From the NCBI GenBank assembly GCA_964441335.1, contig CAYTUI010000002.1:1-60660 (forward strand): a stretch of 60,660 nucleotides of DNA. Reading direction: 5' to 3'. The position numbers were made by a program, and so were the translations under genes. The stretch comes from an uncultured Gammaproteobacteria bacterium (GTDB lineage Bacteria > Patescibacteriota > Patescibacteriia > UBA1558 > 2-01-FULL-52-15). The notes below the pieces were generated by a model, which was given only the letters and a program-made list of their open reading frames with translations, ran no database searches and was not told the origin of the DNA. Shown in pieces: positions 2,632 through 29,016 of this stretch. How positions within the stretch are numbered: position 1 is the first letter of the stretch; each line of letters begins with the position of its first letter.

Positions 2632-3820
2632 CATTAGAAGAGTCTATAGATACATTCAGGATAAAATAATTTTACCTCAGTCCATTACTCTTGATGGCCC
2701 CACCGGCCCAATTGTGTCAGTAGAAAATAAAGATATTTTGATGCTCGGGTCTTATAATTATTTGGGGTTGGCTAATAACAAGGCATTGATTGAGGAAGCT
2801 ATTAAGACAATTAGTACATTTGGGGCGGGGACTGGAGGAGTGCGAATATTAACGGGTACAATGTCCATTCATAAGAAATTGGATAGAGAGGTAGCCGATT
2901 TTACGGGATATGAGGACTCATTAAGTATTGCTTCGGGCTATGGAGCTAATGTGGGTGTTATTCCGGGATTTATTAATTTGATGGGAATGGCTAAGAGTAT
3001 TTTTTTTAAGAAATCCGTGATTCTAAGTGATGAGTATAATCATGCGAGCATAGTAGATGGATGTAGATTAGCTAACGCAAAAATAGAGATATATAAACAC
3101 AATGATGTTAAAGATCTCGAAAAGCTAGTATCAAAGTATAAGAGATACAGGAAGCTTATAGTAACTGATGGTGTTTTTTCAATGGACGGTGACATCGCGC
3201 CACTTAATGCAATATTAGATATAGCAAAAGTTTATGATGCGAGTACTATGGTGGATGATGCTCATGCAGTAGGGATAATAGGGGATCATGGCGCGGGAAC
3301 CGCGTCATATTTTGGCAGACCTGGCCAGGTTACTATAAATATGGGCACCTTTAGTAAAGGTCTGGGTGTTTCGGGAGGGTTTATTTCTGGCTCATCAGAT
3401 TTGATCAATTATATGCGATTAGCATGCCGTTCTTACATGTTTTCTGACGCTCTAGCGCCTGGCGTCGTGGGGGCGGTGAGAGAATCTTTAAGATATGTTC
3501 GAAGTCATCCGGAAATTATTGAAGATTTATCCAAAAAATCAGATTATTTTAGATCTAAGTTGAACGCTGTAGGCTTCAATACGTTTAAAAGTAGAACTCA
3601 AATTATCCCAATCTTAATTGGAGATCAAAAAGCTTGTGTCAAATTTGCCGAAAGATTGTTGGAGGAAGGGTTATTTGCGCCTGCGATTAGATGGCCAGCT
3701 GTGCCAAAGAATTTAAGTAGAATTAGGTTCGCCGTTAGTGCTAGTCATAGTTATGAGCAACTTGATTTTGGGATTCAAATTATAACAAGAATTGGTAAGG
3801 AGTTTAAAATTATAGACTAA
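2624..3820 (+). CDS. PLP-dependent alpha-oxoamine synthase (BioF / KBL / serine palmitoyltransferase family)
   Basis: NYLGL, SGYGAN, NHASIVDG, TDGVFSMDGD, VDDAH and PLP-lysine context GTFSKGLG; 8-nt overlap with the acyl-CoA ligase gene. Confidence 0.85.
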   Translation: MNDIRRVYRYIQDKIILPQSITLDGPTGPIVSVENKDILMLGSYNYLGLANNKALIEEAIKTISTFGAGTGGVRILTGTMSIHKKLDREVADFTGYEDSLSIASGYGANVGVIPGFINLMGMAKSIFFKKSVILSDEYNHASIVDGCRLANAKIEIYKHNDVKDLEKLVSKYKRYRKLIVTDGVFSMDGDIAPLNAILDIAKVYDASTMVDDAHAVGIIGDHGAGTASYFGRPGQVTINMGTFSKGLGVSGGFISGSSDLINYMRLACRSYMFSDALAPGVVGAVRESLRYVRSHPEIIEDLSKKSDYFRSKLNAVGFNTFKSRTQIIPILIGDQKACVKFAERLLEEGLFAPAIRWPAVPKNLSRIRFAVSASHSYEQLDFGIQIITRIGKEFKIID

Positions 3821-3827
3821 TCTAGAT

Positions 3828-6602
3828 ATGTTAGTTGTATTGGTCGCGTTTATTCTACTAGGAAGTTTATTTTTAGGAGCTGTTGTTTATTTTAGGAACA
3901 AAAGAAATAAACTAAACATCTATTTTGGTGTGATGGCAGTCGCTAATGCATGCTGGGCATTTGTAAATTTAATGTCCGCCTTTGATCAGAATGCAATTTG
4001 GGTCAGGCTTCAATATACGCTAGGCGCAATTCTTTTAGGAGCTGGCCTGGTGTGGTTTTTTTATTTAATTGAAAGAAAGTCAAATATTTTTCGAAGCATT
4101 ATAATATACCTTACTTCATTTTTTTTCGCTGTCACTAGTTTATATGGTGAATTGATAATTAAACGCGTTGATAAAATTAATTTTGGAAGTTTTGAGGGAG
4201 AATTTGGTTCGTTGTTCTTTTTTTACACCGCTTTTATTGGATTGACGCTAATTTTTATTGTTATCAGATTATTTGTTGAGACATTTAGATCAACTGGCAA
4301 TAGGAAATTGCAGCTCTTATATGTATCCTTCGGATCTATGGTTTTTGCTGCATTAGCGATTGTTCCAAGTTTTTTGTTGCCCCTTATTGGGTTTAATAGT
4401 TTTAGTCAGTTCGATCTTATTGGTTCTTTTATATATATATCGTTTATTACCTATTCGATAGTACGATATAGACTTATGAACATAAAGATGGTGATTGCCA
4501 GAAGCGTTTTATATTTTCTACTAGTCGCTACAGTAACAAGCTTTTTTACATTTGTTATTTTCTTAATTCGAGAAATTTTTGAAGTAAAAACTCGCATTTC
4601 AGAATGGGCACTGATTATGTTAGCGTCGTTTATAGTGGTAGTTGCTTTGGACCCGCTGAAAAAACTCCTTTCACGAGTCACTGACGATTTTTTTTACAAA
4701 AATAGAGTTAATTACGACCAACTCTTAAGAAATTTAAGTACTATTATCGCCCGAGAAATTGATATGGAGGTTCTGCTTCAACGCATAAAGGACACTTTAC
4801 AGAAAGACCTGAAAGTTAAAAATGTGGATATTGTGATCCACACTGATGGTTACAAAAAAATTAATAATCAGAAGTTTGAAGACTACGCTATAAATGACGA
4901 AATTATCAATTTGATCAAGAGCGCTGATGATATTATAGTCTTGGAAGAATACCGCAGAAAAGTTGAAGATATGTCGGCTTCAGTTTTAAGGGATAATGTG
5001 ACCAAAGCCATAGAGACTATGGATTCTTTAAATTGGCAATTGATTATCCCGGTGATAGTTGAATCCAAACTGACCGCTGTAATTATTTTGGATTATAAAC
5101 TATCCGGCGATGTATATAGTAAAGAAGATATCAGCTTCTTCAATGTTTTTTCTCCACAAATTGCTATCGCCATTGAAAAGTCCCGACTTTATGAGGAAGT
5201 GGAAAATTTCAATCTAGAGTTGAAAGAGAAAATAGACAGGGCAACCAAGAAATTAAAGACTGCTAATGTGGATTTGGGGGAGAGGAATAAGTTTTTAACT
5301 ATTACGCAAAATATCAGTAATTTGATTAGTCGTAATTTGGATATTAATAATGTTATTCAGATTATAGTTGATAGTATATCTACGGAATTGGGGTATATAG
5401 GTGGTATCTTAAGTTTCAAAGACGAGAGTAATAAATATCTTTATCCGGCGGCGATTACCCGGGGAGAAGCGGCTAAGAAGGGTTTGGCTTTATTGCCACG
5501 GCCGGTCAGCGAGTATAAGGCTAATATTGGTAATAAGGAAAATTTTGGAGTGCGCTGTTTCACTACCGGTAGCGCTATTACCAGCGATTCCTTTGCCGAC
5601 TTTTTCGCGCCGCCAATAGAAAAGGAAGCCGCGGATAAAATTCAACAAGCACTTAATATAGTAACAGTCGTGGGCATTCCTATCTACTCGGAAAATAAAA
5701 TTATTGGCGTCATTCATTACTTGTTAGCTATTAAAGAGGGAAGTATTAGTCGTTTGGATTATGAAATGATGAATAATTTGGCTGACCAAGTGGGTATCGT
5801 TTATAGAAACGTTAAACTGTATCAGCAGTTGGAGAATACTAATAAGAAATTACAGGAGGCTAATATCCATTTAAAACGATTGGATCAGGCCAAGTCCGAG
5901 TTTTTATCCATTGCTTCCCATCAATTGCGCACTCCAACTTCAGCCATCAAAGGCTATCTATCTATGTTATTGGAAGGGGATTATGGTCCGGTAAAACCTG
6001 AACAAAGGAAAGTGGTGGCTGTTGTTTATGAAAGCGCCGCGCGGTTAGCCAGATTGATTAATATCTTTTTGAATGTTTCCAGGATTGAAGCCGGCCGTTT
6101 TAAATTAAATAAAGCACCGACTGATATGAATGAAATTATTAAAGGTGTAGTAACTGAATTGCAACAGCAGGCCAAGACTAAAGATTTGGAATTAAAAGTC
6201 AATTTGCCGACTAAGGCGCCGATACTTAATGTGGACAGCGATAAGATCCGCGAAGTTGTTCTTAATCTGGTTGATAATTCCATCAAGTACACAGCAAAAG
6301 GTTTTGTGGAAATTAACAGCCGCGTCAAAGGGGATCGGTATGAATTTTGGACCAGAGATTCGGGTATGGGTATTAGGACCGATGAAGTAAATACGCTTTT
6401 CAAAAAGTTTGTCCGCGGGACAGGAGTGGCGCAGGTTAATACTGGTGGCTCCGGTTTAGGATTATATATTGCCCAAAGAGTAATTAAAGAACATGGCGGC
6501 CATATTTGGGCGGAGAGCGACGGCTTAGACAAAGGCAGTATTTTTAAATTTACTTTAGCTATGGATAAATCCCCGGATATTACGAGTGGGCATTTGAAGT
6601 AG
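3828..6602 (+). CDS. multi-pass membrane sensor histidine kinase with GAF-like regions
   Basis: About 8-9 N-terminal hydrophobic helices; H-box SHQLRTPTSAIKGY; G1 DSGMGI; G2 GGSGLGLYIA; no response regulator adjacent. Confidence 0.9.
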   Translation: MLVVLVAFILLGSLFLGAVVYFRNKRNKLNIYFGVMAVANACWAFVNLMSAFDQNAIWVRLQYTLGAILLGAGLVWFFYLIERKSNIFRSIIIYLTSFFFAVTSLYGELIIKRVDKINFGSFEGEFGSLFFFYTAFIGLTLIFIVIRLFVETFRSTGNRKLQLLYVSFGSMVFAALAIVPSFLLPLIGFNSFSQFDLIGSFIYISFITYSIVRYRLMNIKMVIARSVLYFLLVATVTSFFTFVIFLIREIFEVKTRISEWALIMLASFIVVVALDPLKKLLSRVTDDFFYKNRVNYDQLLRNLSTIIAREIDMEVLLQRIKDTLQKDLKVKNVDIVIHTDGYKKINNQKFEDYAINDEIINLIKSADDIIVLEEYRRKVEDMSASVLRDNVTKAIETMDSLNWQLIIPVIVESKLTAVIILDYKLSGDVYSKEDISFFNVFSPQIAIAIEKSRLYEEVENFNLELKEKIDRATKKLKTANVDLGERNKFLTITQNISNLISRNLDINNVIQIIVDSISTELGYIGGILSFKDESNKYLYPAAITRGEAAKKGLALLPRPVSEYKANIGNKENFGVRCFTTGSAITSDSFADFFAPPIEKEAADKIQQALNIVTVVGIPIYSENKIIGVIHYLLAIKEGSISRLDYEMMNNLADQVGIVYRNVKLYQQLENTNKKLQEANIHLKRLDQAKSEFLSIASHQLRTPTSAIKGYLSMLLEGDYGPVKPEQRKVVAVVYESAARLARLINIFLNVSRIEAGRFKLNKAPTDMNEIIKGVVTELQQQAKTKDLELKVNLPTKAPILNVDSDKIREVVLNLVDNSIKYTAKGFVEINSRVKGDRYEFWTRDSGMGIRTDEVNTLFKKFVRGTGVAQVNTGGSGLGLYIAQRVIKEHGGHIWAESDGLDKGSIFKFTLAMDKSPDITSGHLK

Positions 6603-11267: not shown

Positions 11268-11747
11268 TTGTCAATTGTTAAAAAAAATTGGTCAAAGATT
11301 GAAAAAAAATATTTTAAAGCTTTGGTAGAAGTAACCAATAAACCAATTTATACCGACAAATTTAATTGTTCACTGACGACATTTGGTATGTGTCCATATG
11401 ACGTCAAGAAAAGTTGGTTTATGGTCAGCACCAGATATGATTTTTCTTATCAGCTGACGGTTATCGCCCATGAAATTATGCACCTACAGTTTATACGTCA
11501 GTATTATCAAGATTGCCGAAAAAAGGGTTTGTCCAGAAGTCAGTTTGAAGATTTGAAAGAAGCCTTAACTGTGTTGCTTAATACCAAACCATTTTCTGCA
11601 TTTTTGATAGCTGAAGATAAGGGATATGTTAGGCATCAACAATTGAGGCGATATATATTGAAGGTTTGGAGTAAGGATCAAGATTTTGAAAATTTGCTTA
11701 ATCAATCAATAAAATTTATATTAAAGAATAATCAATCAAACATATGA
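11268..11747 (+). CDS. hypothetical HExxH-motif protein
   Basis: HEIMH is the only recognisable motif; TTG start; the same frame is open back to ATG 11043 except for one TAG; stop overlaps the RHS start (ATGA). Confidence 0.55.
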   Translation: MSIVKKNWSKIEKKYFKALVEVTNKPIYTDKFNCSLTTFGMCPYDVKKSWFMVSTRYDFSYQLTVIAHEIMHLQFIRQYYQDCRKKGLSRSQFEDLKEALTVLLNTKPFSAFLIAEDKGYVRHQQLRRYILKVWSKDQDFENLLNQSIKFILKNNQSNI

Positions 11748-14700
11748 AAAAGCGAGATTTATACAGGGGGATATATACATTGGTAGTGACGGCTATGGTG
11801 ATTATGCCACTAACCCCGGTTTTGGCAGCTCCACGACCAATTGCTGTAATTTCTGATAATCCGGTGAGTCAAGTTGCGCAACCGGAAGTTGTGGCACCGG
11901 AAGTTGAGGCTGTGCCTGCCGAAATTAGCACGGAACCTGCTCAACCAGCTGATGACGCGGCTTTGATTGATATGGGGTTGCAGGCCGAGGAAACACCGCC
12001 TTTGGAACAGACCAGTGGTGGTGGAGACAGTCCGCTGGATCCTTATGCTAACCGCGATAACGCCGGCGCCAAGCCAACTAAACTATTGGGAGAGCATAAT
12101 GTTGATGAATTCAGCGGCGCCTTTGCTTACTCTTATCCTGTTAGTTTACCGGCCGGCAGAGCAGGATTGCAACCACAAGTAAGTTTGAATTATAACCATC
12201 AGCGACAAAATGTTGGCTCCATGGTCGGCTTTGGCTGGGAGTTATCAATGTCTAGCATAGAAAGAGACGGCAGAACAGGATTGGACAAACTATATACTGA
12301 TAATAATTTCCGACTGAATTTAAACGGCAACCACGAGCTGGTGGCCATTGATGTTGATAGTAATGGGTACGGGTTATATGGGAAGAGAATTGAGAGTGAT
12401 TTTCTGAAGATAGAATATAGTTCGGTAAATAAGTGGCTGGTGACTGATAAAACAGGTATGGTTTATACTTTTGGCTCTCAAGCCACCAGTCGTCAGGACA
12501 ATCCCAGTGATTCCACCAAGGTTTATAGATGGATGCTAGAGGAAATTAGGGATACTAATGACAATTTTGTCCGTTACGAATATTTTAAGGATTTCGGCCA
12601 GATTTATCCCAAGAAGATTTTTTATACCGGCAGTGGCACCACTGATGGAACCTTTGAAGTTTGGTTTGAACCGTTCGCTTCAGGTTCCCAGACTGAAAAT
12701 AACTTAGTGTCAATATCTGAGACCGCCGGGTTTACAGTTCAGACAAAATATTTATTGGACAAAATTGATGTTTATGCTGATGGAGTAAAAAGCCGGTCTG
12801 ATGACTTGAACTTTGGTCTGAACGACTCCGGTAAAAAATATTTATTGAACTCAATCACACCAAAAGCTTATAAAGATGCTCAAGAATATTCTAAAGACAC
12901 AGTGAATTTTGATTATAGCTATGAGGTGGCGTCATTTACACCCTCTGGTGATTATCAATTACCCAGCGGCTATGAGCTGTATTTGCAACCGGGCCTTGGG
13001 TCTTCCAGACGAGCTATGTTTATTGATTTGAATCTTGACGGTTATGCTGATTATATTAATATGACCTGTAATTCATCGGCTGTGACTGTTAATGTTTTCA
13101 ACAATAATACGACTGGTGGATGGAATGATGTTAGTAATTACGACACCAGCTTTGTTTTTTCCGGTTGTAGTCATTCAACTACCATTCCGGCGACTTTTGC
13201 CGAAATGAATGGCGACCACTATATAGATTTAGTTACTAATTCCGGTTATTACCCCAATACTGGTTCTGGCTGGGGAAGTTTAGTCGCGGGTTCTCTACCA
13301 GCATCTTTATTGCAGTCTACAACGAGCAACAAACCGATAAACTCATTAATTTTTACTGATTTAAATAGGGATGGTTATGATGACGCTTATTATAATCATT
13401 CAACCTCTTCGTTGGATTCGGCCGTAACAGCTTATATAAAGAATAAGACAACAGGTGTTTGGACGCAAGATAATGATTATAACATCAGTCTACAATTAGA
13501 TTATGCCGATTGTTTTAGATATGGAGGTACGCCATTTGGTTTTGCAGATGTAAATAATGATGGGTCAGAGGACGTATTCTATGATTATTATTGTCACCCC
13601 GAACAACATACAACATATTCCGGTGAAGTCGTCTATCTAAATAATGGCACCTCCCTTGCTTTATCTGCTGATTATGCTGCGCCAGCCAATATGAGTTGGT
13701 ATAGTATTTCGGCATATAATGGTCAAAATATTTCTTTCTTAAGTGATTTTAATAGAGACGGTCTACAAGATAAAGGAGGTTATAGCAGGGATCAATGGGT
13801 TGACGGAACAGGTCCTCATTCTTCCGGCGGTATGAGTCTATTGGGTGTGTCAGTTTTTGATACTGTAACTTTTGATGGATATAGCTATTTCACTAACGCT
13901 GTTCCAGTCGCGGTTGTTGATCTTAATGGTGATCAGGCTCAAGATGCTATTCATTCATATTCCGGTGACGGAGATCGTATATACTACGGTCAAGGAATTA
14001 AGAACGATATACTAACTAATATTGATGGTCAAAGCGGCGCGTCAGTTAGAGTTGCCTATGGCAATTCCTCTCAAGAAAAAGATTCTACCGGTAGTTTGTT
14101 GAATCCCAATTTGCCTTTTGACACGCAGATTGTCAAGGAAGTTGTAGTGAATGATGGGCAAGAAAATTTGACCGGTCAAAGTTATACATATTCCGACGGT
14201 TCTGTGGCTAGCTATACTAATGAAAATATAAAAGACGTTTATGGCTTTGGAAAGGTGACTAAAAAAATAGGCCAGGCTCTGGTGGATGTTGATTTGGGAG
14301 ATGGATCAGACGGTTCGTTTAATTCCAATATGGACTACATTTTTACCGCAGACAAAGATTTTACATATTTTACAGTAAATTCTGGACATAAAGTTACCAT
14401 ACAACCTGGGGTTAAGGTTAAAGTACAAGGGACAGCTACAATTAATGGCAGTTTATTTGCCAAAGGAACGGGATATCCCGAGCAAGCGGGTCCTGGAGCC
14501 GGTGCTGATGGGCAAATGTCAACTTATGGACCGTCTGGCGGCGGTGGTGGAGCCGGATTTGTTTTTAATGGCGAAAGTTCCGGAGGGTACGAGGGTCAGT
14601 ATATAGTTTCCGGAGGCGTGGCTTATGGTAATAGCGAGTTGGAGCCAGCACTGCGAGGCTCTGGGGGCGGCAAAGGTGGTTATAAGCAAGGTGAGGCTAT

Positions 14701-17700
14701 AGCTCGAGGCGGTTCCGGTGGAGGAATAATAATTTTGAATACTAAAAATTTAACAGTTAACGGAGAGATTAACGCTGACGGTAACGGGGGAGAGAGTTGG
14801 ACATCAACTGGTTACCAAAATAGTGGTGGCGCTGGCGGTGGTTCTGGCGGTTCTATCTATATCAGAGTGGCAGAGACAGCCAATATTGGAACTAATATGG
14901 TTCACGCGCGCGGTGGCGCCGGTGGTCTTGGCGCTTATGGTAATGACGGCGGAGACGGTTCTATCGGACGAATCCGGATTGAAGCGCCAACTATCGTCGG
15001 ATCCACAGATCCTGCCTATTTTTCACTTGGTTCTGTCGGTTATACTGTTGACGGGAACCCCGCGGATTCACAGTTAAGAGTAATTGAATCTGATTATCAG
15101 ACCGCTATAAATTCAGGTACTGCTTTGGATGATTCCTACTTCTTTCACGGCTTAAAATCCCGGGACAGAGAGTTTGATGTTGATGGCAATCAGCTGACTC
15201 AAAATAATTATAGCTACCAGTTAAATAATGTGGGTCAAAGTAGAAAATCTGCTTTATTAGATCTAAAGGCGAGCACAATTATTGACGAAGGTCAAAATTA
15301 TAGCAACGGCCAGCAATTTGATTATGATTTAAATAATGGCAATGTGCTCAATCAGGAAGACTTGGGTCATGTGCAAGTTAATATTAGTTCAGGACAAATA
15401 ACTGATCCTCTACTCGGTGACGAAAAAACCACAACTTATTCTTACGCCCTAAACGCCGATAAACATATTCTCGGCGCGCCTAAGACTAAAGTTGTTTCAG
15501 GTTTGTCGGAAACCAAAGATCAGGACTATTACTATGATCAGCTACCGCTCGGGCAAGTGAATAAAGTTAATCTGACGAAAGAGGATACTAAAGTGAACGG
15601 TGTTGATGTGGAAACTACCTATAATAGTTTGGGTTTGCCGGTAACCAAGAAAGATCCCAAGGAAAATACAGTGGTTACTTTAGCTTATGATAGCGCGAAT
15701 CTTTATCCGCAGACTTCCACCGATGTTAACGGCAGAATTACTACTACTGAATATGACCCAGTGACCGGACAATTACTGCATTCTACAGATCCTAACGGTT
15801 ATCAGGAAGCAAATGGCTATGACGCTTTTGGTCGGCCAATTTTGAAACAAGTTTCTGACCCAAATAATCCGGCTAATTTAATTACTGTTCAGGAAATCAG
15901 TTATGAAGATGTGGCTTTCCCCAACTATAAGGAAGTTAAGGATTATTTTAACTCAAGTCAGTATGTTACCAGCCGTGAATACTATGACGGGCTGGGTAGA
16001 GTTATCCAAAGCAAAAAGTCAGATGCCAGCGGACAGTATGTGACTGTGGCAATGGAATACGACAGTCAGGGTAGAGTTAAAAAACAATCTTTGCCGTATT
16101 TCAGCGGTTCAATCGCTTATTCGGCTCCGGTTTTCACTTATTCAAAGCAGTATACTTATGACGTTTTAGATCGGGTACTGACAGAAATTACACCAGTCGG
16201 CACAACTACTTATTCGTATGACGGTTTTACCACCACCATTACCGATCCGCGCGGCAAGGTTAAGGAATTGACCAAAGACGCCTATGACAATCTGGTTCAG
16301 GTTAAAGAGCATGAAGGAGCCGCAATTTATACGACTAATTATGAATATACCTTGACTAATAAACTGAAGAAAATTACTGACGCTCAAGGCAATGTTAGAA
16401 ATTTTGTTTATGACGATTTGGATAATCTAGCATCGCAGGACATGGTGCATAAAACATCAGTGGCCGACCCTGTTGACTGGGTTTATACCTATGATAACAA
16501 TGGCAACGTTTTAACCAAAACTGATCCCCGCAGTCAGGCGACTGATTATAGTTATGACAGTTTGAACAGAATTTTAACTGAAGACTTTAGCGGCACCAGC
16601 GGAGTGGAATATGATTATAATTACGATGAAGGATTGGGTCAGCTTAACAGATTAAGCAGTGTTATTGGCAATAACGACAGCGCTACTTATTATACTTATG
16701 ATTATGCCGGCAGGCCGACTCTGGTTCATCGGGTAATTGACGGTTTAAACTTTGATTTACAGTTCGCCTATAATATCAGGGGAGATGTCAGTTCAATTAC
16801 TTACTCTGAAAGACAGCGAGTGATTTATTCTTTCAATAACGGCGGACAAGTTAATCAGGTTGATTTAATTGATGACGGGGTGACTACAACTTTGGCAACC
16901 AATATTCAGTATTCGTTGACCGGCTTGATCAGTCATTTGGAACGGGGCAATGGTGTTACCACTGATTATACCTATGACCCGGCTCAAGGTTATCGCTTAA
17001 CTCATTTGGTGAGTCAGTTGGGAAGCGCAAAATTACAGGATATTAGTTATACTTATGATTCCAACGGCAATATTTTAACGCTGACTGATAATTCTAATAC
17101 TGATTTGGCTAAGACCGTGACCTACAATTACGACGACTTGAATCGTTTGGTTTCAGCTACTGTAACTAATGCCACAAGCGGTAATAATTATTCCCATACT
17201 TACAGCTACGACGCTATCGGTAATATGTTATCTAATAGCGCGGTTGGGCAATATACCTATAACAAAGACAATCCGCATCAGGCCGGACAAATTGGGGCAG
17301 ATTATTATACCTATGACGCCAACGGCAATGTTCGTTATATCAATAATGACCTTCATGAATGGGATTGGCGCGACAGAATGACCAAATCGCGTTTAGGCAA
17401 TAACGATTCTACTTATTATGTCTATGACCATAATAATCAGCGGTTGAAGAAATGGACGGATGTCACACCTCCGCCACCACCTCCGCCGCCTGTTCCTTGT
17501 CGCGGTAACTGCCCGAAACCTATTTTTGAGGGTTCTGTGGACGTCGGCTTTGAAGCTACTACAACCGAGGAGATCATAGAGGGGGAATTGGAGATGGGAG
17601 ATGGGGAAGAGGGAAGTGAGGATTCGGGAACTGGGGCTGGTGAAGCGGAAATTGGTAAGCAACCGGTTGAGGAAGTTCAACTATTGGATGGTTCGGCTGA

Positions 17701-18841
17701 CTTGAGTCAGGCCGGAATAGTTAGGATGGCATCTGTTCCGGAGGTTGATGATATTGCTGACTATTATATAGATAAATACTACGAATCGCGGTATAATGGA
17801 TCTGCCAGAAACCACTATTTCTTAGGCAATATCCGTCTAGCTTCAGAAAAGCTGTCTGGCGATAACGCCGGAATATACTACATTTTGTCTGATCACCTAG
17901 GCTCCAGTTCTCTGACAACTAACGCCACCGGTACAGTGATAGCTCTGACAGACTATTATCCTTACGGATCAGAAAGCTATAATAATACTACGACCGATAT
18001 TGGAGACGATTACACCTTTACCGGTAAAGAGTTAGACGAAGAATCTAATCTCCAGTACTTTGGTGCAAGGTATTATGATCAAGAGAGCGGGAGATGGATA
18101 AGCATTGATCCTTATGGATTAGACTTAGATCGTCTCATGGAAATTATATCAAGTCCTCAGCAGTTCAATGGCTATTTATATAGTATGGGAAATCCTGTAA
18201 TTCTAGTTGACCCCGATGGTAATAGATCAGATGAACCATGGGATGTATGGAATTGGGCTCCAGGGTTTAAGCAGTTTGCCGATGCTTTTGACAGACATCC
18301 GAATGAAACAACCAACATCTCGTCAAGCTTAGTACCAGGATATGGAGATGTACAAGATGCTAAAGAAGCCTTCACTGGTAAGGAAACTTTCACTGGTAGG
18401 GATCTTAGTACCGGAGAGAGGGTTATATCGGGAGCCGCCGCTTTTATACCTATAGTTAGTGGATCTGTGATAAGGTCAGGGGTTAAAGCTGTAAAAGGTG
18501 CGATTAAATTATCTGATGAGGTCTTTAGTTTATCGCCCCAGGTCACTAGGGGAGTTCAGAGGTATTGGGCGAAATCTAATTATGATGATACTTTGAGCAG
18601 TTTCGGGGATCATTTTGCAAGACACGGTGCCGGTAGAACCCCGGAACAGTATTTAGATGATGGGGTAGATTTTTACAAGGATTACAAAGACTTTGGTAAG
18701 AGTCACCATATTTATTCCACAAATGAATATGGTATAAAAATCAGTAATAAAGACCTGAACTACTACGGCATTTATACTACATATGGAAGGGCGGTTACTC
18801 ATGGACCGATTGATGAGAGTAAATCATTTCTTAATTACTAA
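11744..18841 (+). CDS. RHS/YD-repeat polymorphic toxin with SpvB-like and FG-GAP/VCBS-like N-terminal regions
   Basis: N-terminal signal/TM. SpvB-like FSGAFAYSYPVSLPAGRAGLQPQVSLNYN...GFGWELS. Five DxNxDGxxD repeats. Many YD repeats (YDAFGRP, YYDGLGRV, YDSQGRV, YDALGN-type). RHS core end YFGARYYDQESGRWISIDPYGL ... NPVILVDPDGN, followed by a variable C-terminus. Confidence 0.93.
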   Translation: MKKRDLYRGIYTLVVTAMVIMPLTPVLAAPRPIAVISDNPVSQVAQPEVVAPEVEAVPAEISTEPAQPADDAALIDMGLQAEETPPLEQTSGGGDSPLDPYANRDNAGAKPTKLLGEHNVDEFSGAFAYSYPVSLPAGRAGLQPQVSLNYNHQRQNVGSMVGFGWELSMSSIERDGRTGLDKLYTDNNFRLNLNGNHELVAIDVDSNGYGLYGKRIESDFLKIEYSSVNKWLVTDKTGMVYTFGSQATSRQDNPSDSTKVYRWMLEEIRDTNDNFVRYEYFKDFGQIYPKKIFYTGSGTTDGTFEVWFEPFASGSQTENNLVSISETAGFTVQTKYLLDKIDVYADGVKSRSDDLNFGLNDSGKKYLLNSITPKAYKDAQEYSKDTVNFDYSYEVASFTPSGDYQLPSGYELYLQPGLGSSRRAMFIDLNLDGYADYINMTCNSSAVTVNVFNNNTTGGWNDVSNYDTSFVFSGCSHSTTIPATFAEMNGDHYIDLVTNSGYYPNTGSGWGSLVAGSLPASLLQSTTSNKPINSLIFTDLNRDGYDDAYYNHSTSSLDSAVTAYIKNKTTGVWTQDNDYNISLQLDYADCFRYGGTPFGFADVNNDGSEDVFYDYYCHPEQHTTYSGEVVYLNNGTSLALSADYAAPANMSWYSISAYNGQNISFLSDFNRDGLQDKGGYSRDQWVDGTGPHSSGGMSLLGVSVFDTVTFDGYSYFTNAVPVAVVDLNGDQAQDAIHSYSGDGDRIYYGQGIKNDILTNIDGQSGASVRVAYGNSSQEKDSTGSLLNPNLPFDTQIVKEVVVNDGQENLTGQSYTYSDGSVASYTNENIKDVYGFGKVTKKIGQALVDVDLGDGSDGSFNSNMDYIFTADKDFTYFTVNSGHKVTIQPGVKVKVQGTATINGSLFAKGTGYPEQAGPGAGADGQMSTYGPSGGGGGAGFVFNGESSGGYEGQYIVSGGVAYGNSELEPALRGSGGGKGGYKQGEAIARGGSGGGIIILNTKNLTVNGEINADGNGGESWTSTGYQNSGGAGGGSGGSIYIRVAETANIGTNMVHARGGAGGLGAYGNDGGDGSIGRIRIEAPTIVGSTDPAYFSLGSVGYTVDGNPADSQLRVIESDYQTAINSGTALDDSYFFHGLKSRDREFDVDGNQLTQNNYSYQLNNVGQSRKSALLDLKASTIIDEGQNYSNGQQFDYDLNNGNVLNQEDLGHVQVNISSGQITDPLLGDEKTTTYSYALNADKHILGAPKTKVVSGLSETKDQDYYYDQLPLGQVNKVNLTKEDTKVNGVDVETTYNSLGLPVTKKDPKENTVVTLAYDSANLYPQTSTDVNGRITTTEYDPVTGQLLHSTDPNGYQEANGYDAFGRPILKQVSDPNNPANLITVQEISYEDVAFPNYKEVKDYFNSSQYVTSREYYDGLGRVIQSKKSDASGQYVTVAMEYDSQGRVKKQSLPYFSGSIAYSAPVFTYSKQYTYDVLDRVLTEITPVGTTTYSYDGFTTTITDPRGKVKELTKDAYDNLVQVKEHEGAAIYTTNYEYTLTNKLKKITDAQGNVRNFVYDDLDNLASQDMVHKTSVADPVDWVYTYDNNGNVLTKTDPRSQATDYSYDSLNRILTEDFSGTSGVEYDYNYDEGLGQLNRLSSVIGNNDSATYYTYDYAGRPTLVHRVIDGLNFDLQFAYNIRGDVSSITYSERQRVIYSFNNGGQVNQVDLIDDGVTTTLATNIQYSLTGLISHLERGNGVTTDYTYDPAQGYRLTHLVSQLGSAKLQDISYTYDSNGNILTLTDNSNTDLAKTVTYNYDDLNRLVSATVTNATSGNNYSHTYSYDAIGNMLSNSAVGQYTYNKDNPHQAGQIGADYYTYDANGNVRYINNDLHEWDWRDRMTKSRLGNNDSTYYVYDHNNQRLKKWTDVTPPPPPPPPVPCRGNCPKPIFEGSVDVGFEATTTEEIIEGELEMGDGEEGSEDSGTGAGEAEIGKQPVEEVQLLDGSADLSQAGIVRMASVPEVDDIADYYIDKYYESRYNGSARNHYFLGNIRLASEKLSGDNAGIYYILSDHLGSSSLTTNATGTVIALTDYYPYGSESYNNTTTDIGDDYTFTGKELDEESNLQYFGARYYDQESGRWISIDPYGLDLDRLMEIISSPQQFNGYLYSMGNPVILVDPDGNRSDEPWDVWNWAPGFKQFADAFDRHPNETTNISSSLVPGYGDVQDAKEAFTGKETFTGRDLSTGERVISGAAAFIPIVSGSVIRSGVKAVKGAIKLSDEVFSLSPQVTRGVQRYWAKSNYDDTLSSFGDHFARHGAGRTPEQYLDDGVDFYKDYKDFGKSHHIYSTNEYGIKISNKDLNYYGIYTTYGRAVTHGPIDESKSFLNY

Positions 18842-18842
18842 T

Positions 18843-19160
18843 ATGAAAAAAAATAGAGAAACAATAGATAAACTGGTTCAATCCTTAAGGAGACCATTCC
18901 CCGCAGAGTTGCCAGGAACTGACTCGAAAGCAGATTTTGATCTCGAGGATGGTAGAATTGCGGGCTTGGCCTCTAAATTCCTCAAAGGAAAGAGAATAGA
19001 CATTATCAAGCCATTTGATCCTGTTCTTAAGGCGATCATTATTAACTATGTGCCAGAGGATAAACACGCAGTTCGGGCATATAATGAAAGTCTACGAAGG
19101 ATAAGTGAGTTAGAGGAGATTGTGAATCTCGTGAATCAAGAATTAGGAAATTGTTTTTGA
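18843..19160 (+). CDS. candidate cognate immunity protein of the RHS toxin
   Basis: 105-aa ORF starting 1 nt after the RHS stop; assignment by position only, no motif recognised. Confidence 0.5.
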   Translation: MKKNRETIDKLVQSLRRPFPAELPGTDSKADFDLEDGRIAGLASKFLKGKRIDIIKPFDPVLKAIIINYVPEDKHAVRAYNESLRRISELEEIVNLVNQELGNCF

Positions 19161-20234: not shown

Positions 20235-21287
20235 ATGATGATAAAAAGGATGTTTCCGATTCTGCTAATGGCAGTTTTCGGATTTTTATTTGTGTCGTCT
20301 GTTCAGGCAGAGGAGACGACTTATCCGGCGGGGTCGTTACTTGCTTTGAATAAAACAGGATCAGCAGTTTATTACATTGGTGAGGATGCAAGGAAATATA
20401 TTTTTCCCGAGGAGAAGACCTACTTTACTTGGTATGATGATTTTTCTAAAGTAATTAAAGTAGACCCAATTGAGCTGGATAAATATGAAGATGGCGGAAT
20501 TATGCCCTATAGGCCGGGTGTTTTGCTTATAACCCATCCCAATACCAACAATGTATATGCGGTAGAACCGAATGGTTTGTTGAGAAAAATTGTTTCAGAG
20601 GAAGCCGCCAAGAATTTATATGGTGAAAATTGGGCGTCAACTGTTCGGGATGTTATACCCGGGTATTTTGCATCAACGTATAAAATGGGGTCTGACCTGT
20701 CAGATAAGTTGCCCAATGGCACTTTGGTAAAAGAACAAGGCAAAGATGATATATATTATGTTTATGACGGCAGTAGAAGAAAGTTTTATGACGCTACGGC
20801 TTTTGATGAGAACGGATTTAGGCAAAAAGATATTATGACTGTGGCTAGCTTAGCCAAGTATGAATACGGGAGAACCATAAAAGGTAAGGAAGAAAATTTG
20901 TCCCACTTCACGAAAGACAAGGCATTCAAATATTCAAATATGGAATTGTATTACACGATTAATAGTGACTTTGGCGGAAGTATCGCGATTGTATTTCCTA
21001 CCTCAACAAAACCTTTTGAAGTAAGAAATGTTCTCATCAAAGGAGCCGGAAATTTGAGGCTTGATTATAAAAGTAATCAATATGCTTTAAAGGAAGGAGA
21101 AACCTCCTATTTCACCTTATATTATCAGGCACCGTTCGTGGTAGACATGAGCGAGTCATACATGAAAGTTGTTAGCAATAATTTTAGATCGGAGACGCCT
21201 ATTGAAATAGATCTTAGAGATTGGGTTTTGTGGGATATAGCTGAAGATAAACAAATAATCAATATACACGGTCAGACTTTTAAATAA
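20235..21287 (+). CDS. secreted/surface protein sharing its N-terminal module with the 1240-aa surface protein
   Basis: Signal peptide; about 190 aa (AVYYIGEDARKYIFP...TYFTWY...YRPG...VYAVEPNG...VIPGYF) parallel the N-terminus of the 56784-60506 product. Confidence 0.7.
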   Translation: MMIKRMFPILLMAVFGFLFVSSVQAEETTYPAGSLLALNKTGSAVYYIGEDARKYIFPEEKTYFTWYDDFSKVIKVDPIELDKYEDGGIMPYRPGVLLITHPNTNNVYAVEPNGLLRKIVSEEAAKNLYGENWASTVRDVIPGYFASTYKMGSDLSDKLPNGTLVKEQGKDDIYYVYDGSRRKFYDATAFDENGFRQKDIMTVASLAKYEYGRTIKGKEENLSHFTKDKAFKYSNMELYYTINSDFGGSIAIVFPTSTKPFEVRNVLIKGAGNLRLDYKSNQYALKEGETSYFTLYYQAPFVVDMSESYMKVVSNNFRSETPIEIDLRDWVLWDIAEDKQIINIHGQTFK

Positions 21288-21417: not shown

Positions 21418-22629
21418 ATGAAAAATAGATTAATAATCGGGTCAATTGCAGTATTAATGATTGTCCCGTTTTTGAGTTTTAATTATGCTAGCGCTAATTC
21501 TGCCAGCGGTACGCCCTTTGAGATGATTTGGCAGGCACTTGAAAAATTAACCGGTAAAGTGGATAGCCATGAGGAGCGTATTACCGCCTTGGAGCAAAAA
21601 TTGGCGTTAATGGAAAATCCAGGCACCTTAACTGTGGCCAACAGCAATTCTATCCCCGCCCAAAATATTAGCGTCGGTAATGACGTCGTCTTGGGAGGTT
21701 TTGAATTTACTGCCAGCAATGAACCGATTAATGTGACTGACTTGACTTTAACTATTATTTCCAACTTCAATACTACTACCGCTGATGCTCTGAATTCCGT
21801 CAAAATAGTTGACGTTACCAACTCTACAGTTGCCGGACCGGCAGATTTATCAGGCAACACCTCGCAGGTAAATTTTACAGATCCATTCATTGTACCTGTG
21901 GGAGTAAATAATTATCGGATTGTTGCGAACTTAAATACTAATGGTGTCTGGCAGGATAACGACAAAATTTATGTTCAATTAGCAACTCCACAGTCGGCTA
22001 TTATTGCTCAAGGTGCAATTAGCGGCCAAAATATTTTAGTGCAACCAAATGCTAACGTTAAGGCCAATACTCAAACTATTAAGTTGGCTAAATTAATGAT
22101 TACCAGAAATACTTTACCGGCCGCTATGAATATTGTCCCCGGTACACAGGATTTGGGCTTAAGCGGTTGGAATTTTAGCGCAGCCAACTCAGCCGAAGAT
22201 GTTAGAGTAACGGCAATTTTATTTGCCGCCAATTCTTCCGATGTTAATAACTTAACGGTTAAAGTTGATGGTGTTATTAAAACTCCAGTGATGTCAGCTC
22301 CGCCAGTGGGGGATAATCAGACTACAACTTTTGCTTTTGACGAGCCCATAATAATTCCTAAAGGTACTTCCAAAAATATTTTACTGGAAGGCGATGTCAG
22401 TTTTGATGCGGTTATTGGTAATAGGATCCAGTTCGGTTTAACCGACTCTTCCGTAAAAAATAATAATTCGGTTATCGCTTATGGTGTATCTAACGGTAAT
22501 CGCGTTGATATAAATTTAGTTTCTGACGATGGTCCGTTTATGACAATTGTCAGCCCTGACTTTGTTAGAAATATAGCAGGCGCGATCGGTATCCAGCCAA
22601 TTAATCCAGACCTGCAAATTACCAGATAA
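21418..22629 (+). CDS. surface protein sharing a central module with the 1240-aa surface protein
   Basis: Signal anchor, coiled coil, then about 260 aa parallel to roughly residues 565-825 of the 56784-60506 product (LTVKVDG, TTFAFD, KGTSK, QFGLTD). Confidence 0.7.
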   Translation: MKNRLIIGSIAVLMIVPFLSFNYASANSASGTPFEMIWQALEKLTGKVDSHEERITALEQKLALMENPGTLTVANSNSIPAQNISVGNDVVLGGFEFTASNEPINVTDLTLTIISNFNTTTADALNSVKIVDVTNSTVAGPADLSGNTSQVNFTDPFIVPVGVNNYRIVANLNTNGVWQDNDKIYVQLATPQSAIIAQGAISGQNILVQPNANVKANTQTIKLAKLMITRNTLPAAMNIVPGTQDLGLSGWNFSAANSAEDVRVTAILFAANSSDVNNLTVKVDGVIKTPVMSAPPVGDNQTTTFAFDEPIIIPKGTSKNILLEGDVSFDAVIGNRIQFGLTDSSVKNNNSVIAYGVSNGNRVDINLVSDDGPFMTIVSPDFVRNIAGAIGIQPINPDLQITR

Positions 22630-26195: not shown

Positions 26196-27467
26196 ATGAT
26201 TAAAGACGTTATTAAGAAGGTTTCAGCTGAAGAAATATTGGATTCCCGCGGGGAGCCGACTGTGGAAGTAACAGTGGAACTGCAAAGCGGTTTGGCTGCT
26301 AAAGCCTCGGTTCCCTCGGGTGCTTCAACCGGAGCCTTTGAAGCTCATGAATTGCGCGATCAGGACCCTAACCGTTATAACGGCAAGGGCGTTCTTAAGG
26401 CTGTGGCCAATGTTAATCAGCAGATTGACAAAGCCTTGAGAGATTTAGAAATAACCAGTCAGCAAAAGATTGATTCGGTCATGATTGAAATTGACGGTAC
26501 TGAAAATAAATCCAATCTGGGAGCTAATGCGATTTTGGGAGTTTCTATGGCGGTCGCTCGGACTGCCAGCAAGTCATTGGGTTTACCTCTTTATGAATAT
26601 TTGGGCAGCTTATTTGGTAAAAAGGAATATTCTCTGCCTATACCGTTGGTTAATCTGATTAACGGTGGTAAGCATGCCAGCACCAACCTTAATATGCAGG
26701 AGTTTTGGGTCATACCGACCGGCCAGAGGACTTTTCATGAAAGACTAAGATGTGCCACGGAAATTTTCCAGGTCTTGGGGCAATTATTAAGGAACGATAA
26801 GAAAGATACTGACGTCGGTAATGAAGGCGGATATGCTCCTGACTTTAAGAGTCATAAAGAAGCTCTGGATTATTTAGTCAGGGCGGTTGAAGGAGCAAAA
26901 TATAAATTAGGTGCGGATGTTTTTCTAGGATTGGATGTGGCGGCTTCCGAATTTTTTAATGCTGATAGAAATATTTATCGGTTGGAACTGGAAGGTAGTG
27001 ATTTTACTTCCACGGAGTTTACTAATTACATGTTGGGTTTGGCCAAAAGTTATTCATTGGCAGCCGTGGAAGATCCGTTAGCCGAAGAGGATTGGTTAAG
27101 TTGGGTGAGTTTAACGGCAGAGATGAAAAAGTATGATCCGAATTTAAGAATTATCGGCGACGATATTTTTGCCACCAACTCCAAAAGATTTCAGAAAGGT
27201 ATTGATATGGGTGTAGCTAATTCCATTTTGATTAAGCTTAATCAAATTGGAACTGTCAGTGAAACTTTGGACACAATTAGATTGGCCAAGAAGCACGGCT
27301 ATAAGACAGCAATCTCACATCGCAGTGGCGAAACAGTGGATACTTTTATCGCCGACTTAGCCGTGGCAGTCGGCTCGGAGTTTATTAAAACCGGCTCTGT
27401 GGCGCGTGGTGAGCGTACCGCTAAGTATAATCGTCTGCTAAATATTGAATCAGAATTTAATGTCTAA
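26196..27467 (+). CDS. eno: enolase
   Basis: SVPSGASTGAFEAHELRD, IKLNQIGT and SHRSGET motifs. Confidence 0.97.
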   Translation: MIKDVIKKVSAEEILDSRGEPTVEVTVELQSGLAAKASVPSGASTGAFEAHELRDQDPNRYNGKGVLKAVANVNQQIDKALRDLEITSQQKIDSVMIEIDGTENKSNLGANAILGVSMAVARTASKSLGLPLYEYLGSLFGKKEYSLPIPLVNLINGGKHASTNLNMQEFWVIPTGQRTFHERLRCATEIFQVLGQLLRNDKKDTDVGNEGGYAPDFKSHKEALDYLVRAVEGAKYKLGADVFLGLDVAASEFFNADRNIYRLELEGSDFTSTEFTNYMLGLAKSYSLAAVEDPLAEEDWLSWVSLTAEMKKYDPNLRIIGDDIFATNSKRFQKGIDMGVANSILIKLNQIGTVSETLDTIRLAKKHGYKTAISHRSGETVDTFIADLAVAVGSEFIKTGSVARGERTAKYNRLLNIESEFNV

Positions 27468-29016
27468 AAAACCGCTGATAGTTTTATGTATATTGGACGG
27501 CTGGGGGATAGGAGCGGCAAATTATGGCAACGCAATTACACAGGCCAAACTGCCATTCTATCAATCTTTCCTCAAGAAATACGCCCACACAGAACTGGAG
27601 GCTTCATCTAAGTATGTCGGTCTGCCCTTAAGACAGTCTGGAAATTCTGAAGCTGGGCACATGAATATTGGAGCCGGTCGTATTGTGGAGCAGGACGCGG
27701 TAGTAATTTCCCGTAGTATTAATGACGGAACATTTTTTCGTAACCCGGCTTTTTTACAAGCCGCCAGACATGCTAAAGAACATAATACCGATGTGCATCT
27801 AGTAGGATTGTTGACTGGTAATCAAAGCGCTCATTCTGATCCTGACCATTTGATTTCTTTGATAACATTATTCAAACATCAGAACATTAAGAATGTTTAT
27901 CTACATTTGTTTACTGACGGCCGCGATAGTCCTCGGTTTTATGCCCAGAAATTAATTAAGAAATACAGCGGTTTTTTCAGTAAGTATGCCCAAGTGGCCA
28001 CGATTATGGGGCGCTTTTACGGTATGGACAGAAAGAAGGAATGGTCGCGAACAGAGCTGGCATATAACGCTATGATTTTTGGTGAGGGCGTAAAAGACGA
28101 TAGCTCCGAAGACGCCATATTACACGCTTACGCCAGGGATGAAAGTGATGAGTTTATCAAGCCGACAATTATATGCGACAAGAACGGTAAACCTAGGGGT
28201 GTAATCAAAGATAATGACGCTGTGGTATTTTTTAATTTACGTTCGGACAGAGCCAGACAGATGTGTAAACCATTCGTTCAAAAAAGATTTGAAGATTTAA
28301 ATGCGGGCGCCTTTAAGCGCCGCAAGATAATGCAAGGCTTGTATTTAGTTGCCATGACTGATTTTGGACCTGATTTGGGGGACATTGTTACGGCTTACCC
28401 CAGTCGCGATATAACCGATACTTTACAGATGGTTTTGCATAATTATCGGCAGATGGTAATTGCTGAAAACGAAAAGTACGCTCATGTGACATATTTTTTG
28501 AACGGCGGTTATTCTGATCCTGTGGCGGGAGAAAAAAGGATTATAGTGGATTCGCCGGATCTTAAGATGTATGATAAAGAGCCGCAGATGAGTGTTCAAA
28601 AGACTTCAGCCTTGGTTGTAGATGCGATTAAAAATAATCAATACGATTTTATTGTTATGAACATAGCCAACCCTGACATGGTTGCCCATACGGGAAATCT
28701 TTTCGCCACTATTAAGGCTTGTGAATTTACTGATGTTGCCTTGGGAGCTATTAGTCAGGCGGTACTGAATAAAAAAGGTATTCTGATTGTGACTGCTGAT
28801 CACGGTAATGCTGAGGAGCTTGTTAATAAAAATACTGGCTGGCCGGATACAGAACATAGCACTAGTCGCGTGCCCTTTATTATTGTTAAGAATGGTTCCA
28901 GGCCGCAGCTTAGGAAAAAGGGAATATTGGGAGACATCGCTCCGACTATTTTGGATTTGCTCCGCGAAAATAAACCCAAGCTCATGACCGGTAAAAGTTT
29001 GATAATAAAAAAATAG
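27460..29016 (+). CDS. gpmI: 2,3-bisphosphoglycerate-independent phosphoglycerate mutase, copy 1 (divergent)
   Basis: LDGWG, GNSEAGH, TDGRD, YAHVTYFLNGG, NPDMVAHTG and ADHGNAE; the ATG at 27460 overlaps eno by 8 nt. Confidence 0.9.
   Translation: MSKKPLIVLCILDGWGIGAANYGNAITQAKLPFYQSFLKKYAHTELEASSKYVGLPLRQSGNSEAGHMNIGAGRIVEQDAVVISRSINDGTFFRNPAFLQAARHAKEHNTDVHLVGLLTGNQSAHSDPDHLISLITLFKHQNIKNVYLHLFTDGRDSPRFYAQKLIKKYSGFFSKYAQVATIMGRFYGMDRKKEWSRTELAYNAMIFGEGVKDDSSEDAILHAYARDESDEFIKPTIICDKNGKPRGVIKDNDAVVFFNLRSDRARQMCKPFVQKRFEDLNAGAFKRRKIMQGLYLVAMTDFGPDLGDIVTAYPSRDITDTLQMVLHNYRQMVIAENEKYAHVTYFLNGGYSDPVAGEKRIIVDSPDLKMYDKEPQMSVQKTSALVVDAIKNNQYDFIVMNIANPDMVAHTGNLFATIKACEFTDVALGAISQAVLNKKGILIVTADHGNAEELVNKNTGWPDTEHSTSRVPFIIVKNGSRPQLRKKGILGDIAPTILDLLRENKPKLMTGKSLIIKK

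Follow-up and report, generated by a model that had tools for sequence, protein, structure and literature searches.

For what purpose would a groundwater bacterium keep a single gene of 7.1 kb, and against which cells would its product be directed? The question is raised by contig CAYTUI010000002.1, of which the whole stretch analysed (60,660 nucleotides, hereafter the window) contains at positions 11744-18841 of the forward strand an uninterrupted open reading frame (ORF), from ATG to TAA, encoding a protein of 2365 amino acids (aa). A preliminary description made from the sequence letters had read this gene as an SpvB/FG-GAP/RHS polymorphic toxin in the small AT-rich genome of a reduced, probably episymbiotic organism. 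The analysis reported here makes it very likely that the gene encodes a Sec-exported, single-chain Rhs polymorphic toxin of the TcB/TcC type, that it belongs to a Komeilibacteria-related groundwater bacterium of the Patescibacteria, and that it is accompanied by an immunity gene. Every sequence module of a closed Rhs cocoon is present, namely SpvB, the FG-GAP-like repeats of a presumed propeller, TcdB-mid, YD shell and a core with both of its Asp motifs, and these are followed by a linker, a toxin domain and a small downstream gene, in the following order (GC, guanine-cytosine content):

11744-11827 (+): putative signal peptide of the Sec type, which if left uncleaved would be an N-terminal anchor; aa 1-28, MKKRDLYRGIYTLVVTAMVIMPLTPVLA, followed by AP
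11828-12103 (+): low-complexity linker rich in Ala, Pro and Glu; aa 29-120 (Ala 15%, Pro 14%, Glu 10%)
12110-12589 (+): SpvB/TcB N-terminal domain; aa 123-282 (PF03534, E 2.4e-17, 63.5 bits against a cutoff of 22)
13025-13945 (+): six FG-GAP/VCBS-like DxNxDGxxD repeats, a presumed beta-propeller plug; aa 428-734
13898-14266 (+): TcdB middle/N-terminal region (TcdB_toxin_midN); aa 719-841 (PF12256, E 4e-9, 36.5 bits against a cutoff of 24.8)
14291-15301 (+): first insertion hotspot, occupied here by a Gly-rich module; aa ~850-1186
15302-17455 (+): RHS/YD-repeat shell; aa 1187-1904 (PF05593, E 1.8e-27; DUF6443; TIGR01643, E 1.5e-14)
17456-17764 (+): poly-Pro (P8) and acidic low-complexity insert preceding the Rhs core; aa 1905-2007 (Glu 15%, Pro 13%, Gly 13%; GC 52.6%)
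17765-18223 (+): Rhs-associated core (TIGR03696 over aa 2071-2159, E 2.4e-17, 63.2 bits against a cutoff of 32.5)
18311-18502 (+): PT-TG pre-toxin linker; aa 2190-2253 (PF14449, E 1.2e-11)
18530-18841 (+): C-terminal toxin domain with a predicted BECR-type RNase fold, unclassified family; aa 2263-2365 (103 aa)
18843-19160 (+): candidate cognate immunity gene; 105 aa, no signal peptide, starting 2 nucleotides past the toxin stop

The first 28 residues are basic, then hydrophobic, and end in VLA before AP, with no lipobox Cys. Read by inspection, they would constitute a Sec signal or a signal anchor, the cleavage of which we infer from the same residues, and an N-terminus of similar kind was seen in 20 of the 20 best homologues inspected. 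Apart from this region (aa 6-37), the only strongly hydrophobic stretch of the Rhs protein is a segment of the PT-TG linker (aa 2227-2245). The linker at aa 29-120 was without a family match, and the SpvB region that follows it aligns, in a search of PDB sequences, with the N-termini of YenB and TcdB1. The DxNxDGxxD motifs start at aa 428, 487, 539, 602, 668 and 726 (nucleotides 13025, 13358, 13547, 13745 and 13919, plus the degenerate copy EMNGDHYID at nucleotide 13202, aa 487); their Asp/Asn positions are invariant in a 13-sequence family alignment, and the Pfam FG-GAP_3 match stays under the curated cutoff (22.5 vs 26.9 bits). In the shell, 15 YD-type motifs were counted by regular expression, the family PF25023 (TEN_YD-shell) is precomputed for the identical protein, and the sequence aligns to Rhs and Tse5 shells among PDB sequences.

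Most of this architecture had been anticipated. The N-terminal signal or transmembrane segment, the SpvB-like region, the TcdB-middle-like segment and the Gly-rich insert of the preliminary description were all recovered, as was its core end NPVILVDPDGN, the DPDGN of which lies exactly at 18209-18223 and is followed by a variable tail of exactly 205 aa (about 205 had been claimed); the SpvB and RHS core assignments are supported by both profile and PDB sequence searches. Two of its figures have to be corrected: the five propeller repeats stand where they had been placed but a sixth, degenerate copy raises the count, and the YD repeats are present over about 860 aa of YD-type sequence instead of the claimed 1000.

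That so long and repeat-rich a gene, known from metagenomes and carrying two low-complexity inserts of deviating GC (47.7% and 52.6%) in an otherwise uniform base composition, might be an assembly chimera or a decaying pseudogene is hardly credible. The ORF is exactly as first described and its frame is unbroken; the same 2365-aa product, identical, is found on 7 contigs from separate samples, sequencing runs and assemblers (a groundwater project and a Joint Genome Institute metagenome), by which a chimera is excluded. Moreover, homologues are collinear with the window protein over its full length, from signal peptide to core, and synteny of the neighbourhood extends to at least 12 related genomes.

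The core carries the Asp motifs DPYGL (18107-18121) and DPDGN (18209-18223), which match the TccC3 motifs ...DPAG... and DPDGL residue by residue. Within the family D2156 and G2159 are invariant and position 2122 is Asp or Glu, and self-cleavage is predicted to take place after N2160. The residue following DPxG, Asn in the window protein, varies in the clade (N, K, E, R, L, Q, T, D). At this motif, between residues 2159 and 2164, homology to the window protein stops in 13 of the 20 best homologues.

Beyond the break and the PT-TG linker lies a domain for which a word-index homologue search of the tail returned no match, and neither these last 103 aa nor 31 family members matched Pfam or NCBIfam at E<=1. 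An exhaustive HMMER search over 1.8 billion representatives gathered a family of 33 representatives (a count that includes a fragment of the window protein), in all of which the domain is at the extreme C-terminus and in several of which it sits directly after an Rhs core motif; full-length carriers of the family, most carriers being fragments, gave against Pfam only RHS_repeat, on one member. The domain, of ~90 aa, is characterized by the motif W-x-K-x-T-F...Y-H-x-x-K-H-G...Y-T: in a 31-sequence alignment W2275 and H2290 are invariant, H2294 and G2295 (His-Gly) and a Tyr-Thr pair reach a conservation of 90% or more, and 31 of 31 sequences have Ser or Thr where the window protein has T2352, in the last strand, as judged by inspection of the alignment. 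AlphaFold2 with the family alignment yielded a model with pLDDT 95.2 and pTM 0.86, in which three helices lie on a four-stranded antiparallel sheet; a single-sequence run on the 206-aa tail was useless (pLDDT 31.6). By Foldseek against the PDB, the best match of the model is 8ey4_A, the CdiA-CT toxin of E. coli O32:H37 (probability 0.99; TM-score 0.55/0.63; root-mean-square deviation 2.9 Å over 76 columns; 14% identity), and weaker matches are RelE, ParE and the colicin D tRNase. The toxin profile gave chance-level matches only among PDB sequences, and Foldseek against viral structures gave nothing meaningful. In EndoU-like BECR RNases, the active site is described as an arrangement of two His and a Ser/Thr on the terminal strand (2026 preprint 10.64898/2026.08.28.747851). 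H2290 and H2294 (with R2293) and T2352 are thus candidate catalytic residues, and a metal-independent RNase is predicted because the model matches BECR folds and because the family has this two-His and Ser/Thr arrangement.

Immediately downstream lies the 105-aa ORF, for which public gene callers set earlier in-frame starts at 18801 and 18813 and homologue alignments begin at MKKNRE; neither Pfam nor NCBIfam has a match for it. At several other loci (L001, L002/L083/L084, L085 and L044, the last with two tandem copies) the same toxin domain is followed, in the same position, by an ORF of equal size, and behind the toxin genes of the two nearest sequence relatives lies an ORF of that size with the shared motif FP(S/A)E..G.D..AEL...DG. 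A search with a profile of the small protein itself found 12 family members, between 71 and 119 aa long (most 103-110) and devoid of Pfam domains, and at L083, L084 and L085, which were reached from this profile, the upstream gene has an Rhs core and after it, as its end, the toxin domain (hmmsearch E 1e-31 to 1e-35). L044 has a Patescibacteria Rhs shell 35% identical and a toxin domain 43% identical to those of the window, and two diverged immunity-family copies in tandem (112 and 105 aa; L044:17593-18241) after one toxin gene. The toxin and the small protein are regarded as a pair because their linkage is reciprocal, being found both from the toxin and from the immunity profile, and independent of the carrier; from these sequence comparisons, 18843-19160 is likely to be the cognate immunity gene. 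At L083:2368-6215, about ten small ORFs lie past the toxin-immunity pair, among them a Barstar-family protein and a second immunity-family member (P0172), in what looks like an array of immunity genes or of orphan cassettes.

Some observations weigh against the proposed reading. The window copy of the toxin has Leu for the near-invariant Thr of the YT motif and Arg (R2293) for the usual Lys before the second His. The fold assignment comes from one strong match (E 0.065, TM-score ~0.6), the RelE and colicin D matches being weak, and the literature on PDB 8EY4 and the O32:H37 CdiA toxin yielded no functional description. The immunity family is small, pairwise identity to the window copy is low (22-25%), and with the ORF at L001 the BLASTP alignment extends over just 47 aa (E 4e-5). 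Finally, the window covers 60 kb of genome, and a TcA-like or other partner could be encoded elsewhere. Part of this also favours a variant that leaves the carrier unchanged and takes the C-terminal domain for a DNase, a non-enzymatic translation-factor binder or another activity on a BECR-like scaffold: neither a sequence family nor a solved homologue assigns it an activity, the one strong structural neighbour is a protein for which no function was found, and ParE, among the weaker matches, is a gyrase poison rather than an RNase. Nearly all of the fold neighbours (CdiA-CT, RelE, the colicin D tRNase), however, are RNase toxins, and the conserved pair of His with the Ser/Thr suits the metal-independent RNA cleavage described for BECR groups, so that a domain other than an RNase appears unlikely, although it deserves to be kept in mind.

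The carrier belongs to a family of wide distribution. Homologues of the window protein at 30-57% identity come, by the names of their source records, from Patescibacteria, Parcubacteria, Komeilibacteria, Buchananbacteria and Wolfebacteria. When genomes were scanned, one for each species, 74 related loci were obtained, the search patterns being taken from the window's own clade, and the counts therefrom do not measure enrichment. About 50 of the 74 bear names belonging to the candidate phyla radiation (CPR), from Komeili-, Doudna-, Wolfe-, Peregrini-, Sacchari-, Peri-, Magasanik-, Ryan-, Falkow-, Kaiser- and Nomurabacteria to Paceibacterota, with a few from other phyla and one from an archaeon; in two cases two loci come from one metagenome-assembled genome, or MAG (L011 with L030 and L032 with L050). 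The description of the producer as reduced and probably episymbiotic is a reasonable one, if indirectly founded: MAGs of Komeilibacteria, Parcubacteria and other Patescibacteria supply the nearest homologues and the loci in synteny, and the DNA is from a groundwater metagenome. As for the small AT-rich genome, AT richness is moderate, with a GC of 41% in the window, and genome size is not readable from the window. About 15 related MAG records are titled "uncultured Gammaproteobacteria bacterium" (L009, L011-L014, L016, L017, L022 and others), and in several of them the Rhs protein is 45-57% identical and the upstream synteny is shared with Komeilibacteria and Parcubacteria MAGs; the Gammaproteobacteria labels on those records look wrong.

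The comparison of C-termini among related MAGs, proposed at the outset, bore out the polymorphism. When the window's tail and 44 complete tails from the related loci (45 in all, 142-223 aa) were grouped by similarity of their toxin ends, 35 groups were obtained, and nine tails only matched Pfam (Colicin_E5, barnase-type ribonuclease, Tox-REase-9, Ntox50, VanY/M15, SLT, α/β-hydrolase, Tse3-like muramidase and PT-TG). These tails include nucleases and peptidoglycan hydrolases, and bacterial targets are therefore indicated. It is against this background that a different role, as a surface adhesin or teneurin-like structural protein for host attachment, with a C-terminal domain and a downstream ORF that have no part in intoxication and immunity, has to be judged. 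Attachment is central to the episymbiotic lifestyle, the LamG and Gly-rich decorations of the shell (see below) resemble binding modules, and the PDB matches include bacterial teneurin-like proteins and mosquito SGS proteins. A protein of this kind would not account for conserved protease motifs, for a sharp break of homology at DPxG with shuffled tails, for recognisable nuclease and hydrolase tails in relatives, or for a toxin domain strictly linked to its small ORF on unrelated shells, and the adhesin interpretation is accordingly quite improbable.

Another possibility is that the protein is the BC component of a classical Tc (ABC) complex, which would dock on a TcA pentamer encoded elsewhere and act on the cells of eukaryotes, for instance protists or invertebrates. 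Among PDB sequences the protein is indeed matched best by TcdB2-TccC3 fusions and YenB/YenC2, together with TcdB1/TccC2 and Rhs shells of type VI secretion systems (T6SS); the SpvB, propeller and TcdB-mid modules are the TcA-docking half of TcB, and 60 kb of genome is what the window covers. Among the window proteins scanned, however, including ORFs of 1240 and 708 aa, no TcA-type family was found, nor any PAAR or T6SS family. In the 74 related loci, within 10 kb on either side, the only conserved large non-Rhs neighbour is a histidine kinase and none is of TcA size. The Sec signal peptide (read by inspection), the immunity gene with an RNase-type payload, which suggests a target shared with the producer, i.e., bacteria, and the peptidoglycan hydrolases of sister proteins, sensible only against bacteria, are further arguments against this alternative, which must be considered very improbable.

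On the proposed reading of a Sec-exported toxin with an immunity gene, a course of events may be outlined, all steps of which are inferred from the modules and their known counterparts. After export, the YD shell would enclose the C-terminal domain, and the aspartyl protease of the core would cut behind N2160 of DPDGN, so that the toxin would lie free within its shell. Fastened perhaps by a signal anchor that stays uncleaved and by the Pro/Glu-rich stalk, the cocoon might remain on or near the surface of the producer until contact is made with a bacterium nearby, which would be a competitor or the episymbiont's own host. This contact may be aided by the Gly-rich module, as it may be by LamG lectin-like modules in relatives. 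A fragment made of PT-TG and toxin would then be released into the neighbour cell, where the BECR-fold domain would cleave RNA by metal-independent His/His/Ser-Thr chemistry and halt translation, and the 105-aa protein encoded by 18843-19160, a cytoplasmic product, would protect the producer and its kin by binding and blocking any toxin there. A broader proposal, that Sec-exported single-chain BC cocoons, with swappable LamG or Gly-rich modules at fixed shell loops and a PT-TG entry linker, are the general contact weapon or feeding tool of Patescibacteria against host cells, their payload crossing a target envelope with no TcA, T6SS or other injector, is speculative and, on balance, doubtful; if true, it would imply a delivery route of Rhs cocoons not yet described.

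The shell is also a site of insertion. The Gly-rich module at the first hotspot (25% Gly over aa 880-1130, in agreement with the insert first noted) has as sole family match a weak AgmC_N-like one (aa 925-1082, 39 bits, far under the cutoff), no Pfam relative, and chance-level matches in the PDB sequence search; it is common to several homologues and missing from other relatives, and in P0004 a LamG domain takes its place. LamG is found in relatives at two more positions, corresponding to ~aa 1187 and ~aa 1390 of the window protein, sometimes twice in one protein. The poly-Pro/acidic insert, for which Pfam and NCBIfam searches were without a match, is missing from P0005 and P0008 and variable in other relatives. 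Judged by their placement in the sequence, the LamG and Gly-rich modules would decorate the surface of the cocoon. At ~aa 1764, P0011 and P0012 carry shell inserts of 500-750 aa, which makes this position a fourth insertion hotspot; the two inserts have in common a conserved segment and an FN3-like domain (Pur_ac_phosph_N), and that of P0012 also has repeated acidic PPVKGEQEGV units.

The genomic setting is that of an ordinary chromosome, with genes for lower glycolysis and peptidoglycan synthesis, a tRNA and a histidine kinase. Two features precede the Rhs gene:

119-6602: upstream block encoding an α/β-hydrolase, an AMP-binding enzyme, a class I/II aminotransferase and a 924-aa 7TM-GAF histidine kinase
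11268-11747 (+): 159-aa ORF with a HEIMH (HExxH-like) motif, GC 31%, the stop of which overlaps the toxin ATG by 4 nucleotides

The 7TM-GAF histidine kinase recurs (40-69% identity) a few kb upstream of the Rhs gene in at least 12 related species, often accompanied by the genes for the hydrolase, the AMP-binding enzyme and the aminotransferase (L006-L009, L011-L016, L020, L022, L028), and the Rhs locus is therefore old and stably inherited in the clade, with only the tip exchanged. By this synteny the source organism is also placed close to Patescibacteria of the Komeilibacteria type. Regulation of the toxin by the kinase was considered and set aside: housekeeping genes intervene and shared ancestry of gene order explains the synteny equally, so that a regulatory link is possible and nothing more is claimed. 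The composition of the tip was likewise inspected for a foreign origin and gave no signal, the GC of toxin and immunity gene being 0.39 vs 0.41 for the gene and the window. The 159-aa ORF, without a family match, is possibly a small metallopeptidase, going by its motif; as a conserved partner it was rejected, a homologue adjoining the Rhs gene in 1 of the 74 loci only (L016), and its membership in the system is doubtful. A search for promoters and terminators gave counts at chance level, and no operon boundary can be claimed from it. The suggested check for orphan toxin and immunity modules and for secretion genes was run on the window, where tblastn revealed no orphan Rhs tips, second shells or additional immunity copies, and no T6SS families were seen among the ORFs scanned.

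Other features of the window may be recorded here. Just downstream, two ORFs at 20235-21287 (350 aa) and 21418-22629 (403 aa) have signal-peptide-like N-termini and no family match, and homologues of the former lie near the Rhs genes of L079 and L068. At 27445-29016 and 29017-30606, full-length paralogues of cofactor-independent phosphoglycerate mutase (iPGM_N plus Metalloenzyme) are adjacent, back to back; within the first, ARAGORN places a "tRNA-???" (28277-28370) that Rfam does not have and that is probably a false call. The large ORFs mentioned above, at 56784-60506 (+, 1240 aa) and 39524-41650 (-, 708 aa), are without a Pfam or NCBIfam match.

The significance of the locus is twofold. A 7-kb weapon gene kept over a long time by attached organisms of very small genome may show how hosts are harmed or rival epibionts repelled, and, with no injector visible, it offers a clean case for learning how an Rhs cocoon opens and passes its cargo to the target cell. 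A single carrier family spans many lineages of Patescibacteria and, in the nearest clade, occupies a stable locus in which the tip alone is exchanged.

Among the systems known to date, the order of modules in the window protein is the same as in the BC cocoons of Tc toxins, TcdB2-TccC3 of Photorhabdus luminescens (4O9X, 6H6E) and YenB-YenC2 of Yersinia entomophaga (4IGL). These consist of two polypeptides (the PDB entries being engineered fusions), whereas the window protein is one natural chain with, in addition, a predicted N-terminal Sec signal and the Gly-rich and poly-Pro/acidic inserts, and with no TcA in view; the residue after DPxG is Asn instead of the Leu of TccC3. The payload of TccC3 is an ADP-ribosyltransferase aimed at eukaryotic actin, and that of the window protein, by contrast, is a domain of predicted RNase fold accompanied by a likely immunity gene. 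With no TcA-type family among the window proteins scanned and no conserved neighbour of TcA size in the 74 related loci, the window protein does not strictly count as a Tc ABC toxin.

The T6SS Rhs effectors (Tse5, 8CP6; the Salmonella bongori Rhs, 8QJB-D; 7Q97) have, as here, a YD shell, a core and an immunity gene downstream, and they release their toxin by self-cleavage, as is predicted for the window protein. The latter differs from them in its predicted signal peptide and TcB-type half and in that no N-terminus of the PAAR, VgrG-binding or prePAAR type and, among the window ORFs scanned, no T6SS genes were found. Profile searches of the Rhs protein detected no PAAR or related domain, and because of this and of the lack of nearby T6SS genes it is not regarded as a T6SS effector. 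The CdiA-CT of E. coli O32:H37 (8EY4) is also a C-terminal polymorphic-toxin module with a small immunity protein; it is carried by a CdiA filament and not by an Rhs cocoon, and has no profile-detectable sequence relationship with the window toxin.

A further likeness is with WapA of Bacillus subtilis, which, like the window protein, belongs to a bacterium with no outer membrane and combines a signal peptide (in the window protein one read by inspection), YD repeats, an Rhs core, a polymorphic RNase-type C-terminal toxin (predicted to be so in the window protein) and a downstream immunity gene. WapA is said to have been described by Koskiniemi and colleagues in 2013 as a Sec-dependent YD/Rhs toxin of contact-dependent inhibition, with WapI as its immunity protein. 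It is not known to have the SpvB, propeller and TcdB-mid half, in place of which there are wall-binding repeats; a Pfam search found no wall-binding domain in the window protein.

The kind of system described here is a textbook one. SpvB/FG-GAP/RHS carriers are an already recognised chassis of polymorphic toxins, and their occurrence in a CPR genome is in print: a 2487-aa RHS/YD protein of the Saccharibacteria member T. rhizospherense was presented as a "possible secreted toxin" with a neighbouring immunity gene (Starr et al., 2018; PMC6031116). That protein has PA14 and galactose-binding domains, and its report contains no toxin fold, family survey or immunity family. What the window adds to these systems is a stable syntenic locus, a map of insertion points with swappable modules, and a toxin-immunity family unclassified in Pfam, NCBIfam and the PDB, in which a ~90-aa domain of predicted BECR fold is joined by a likely immunity partner of ~105 aa.

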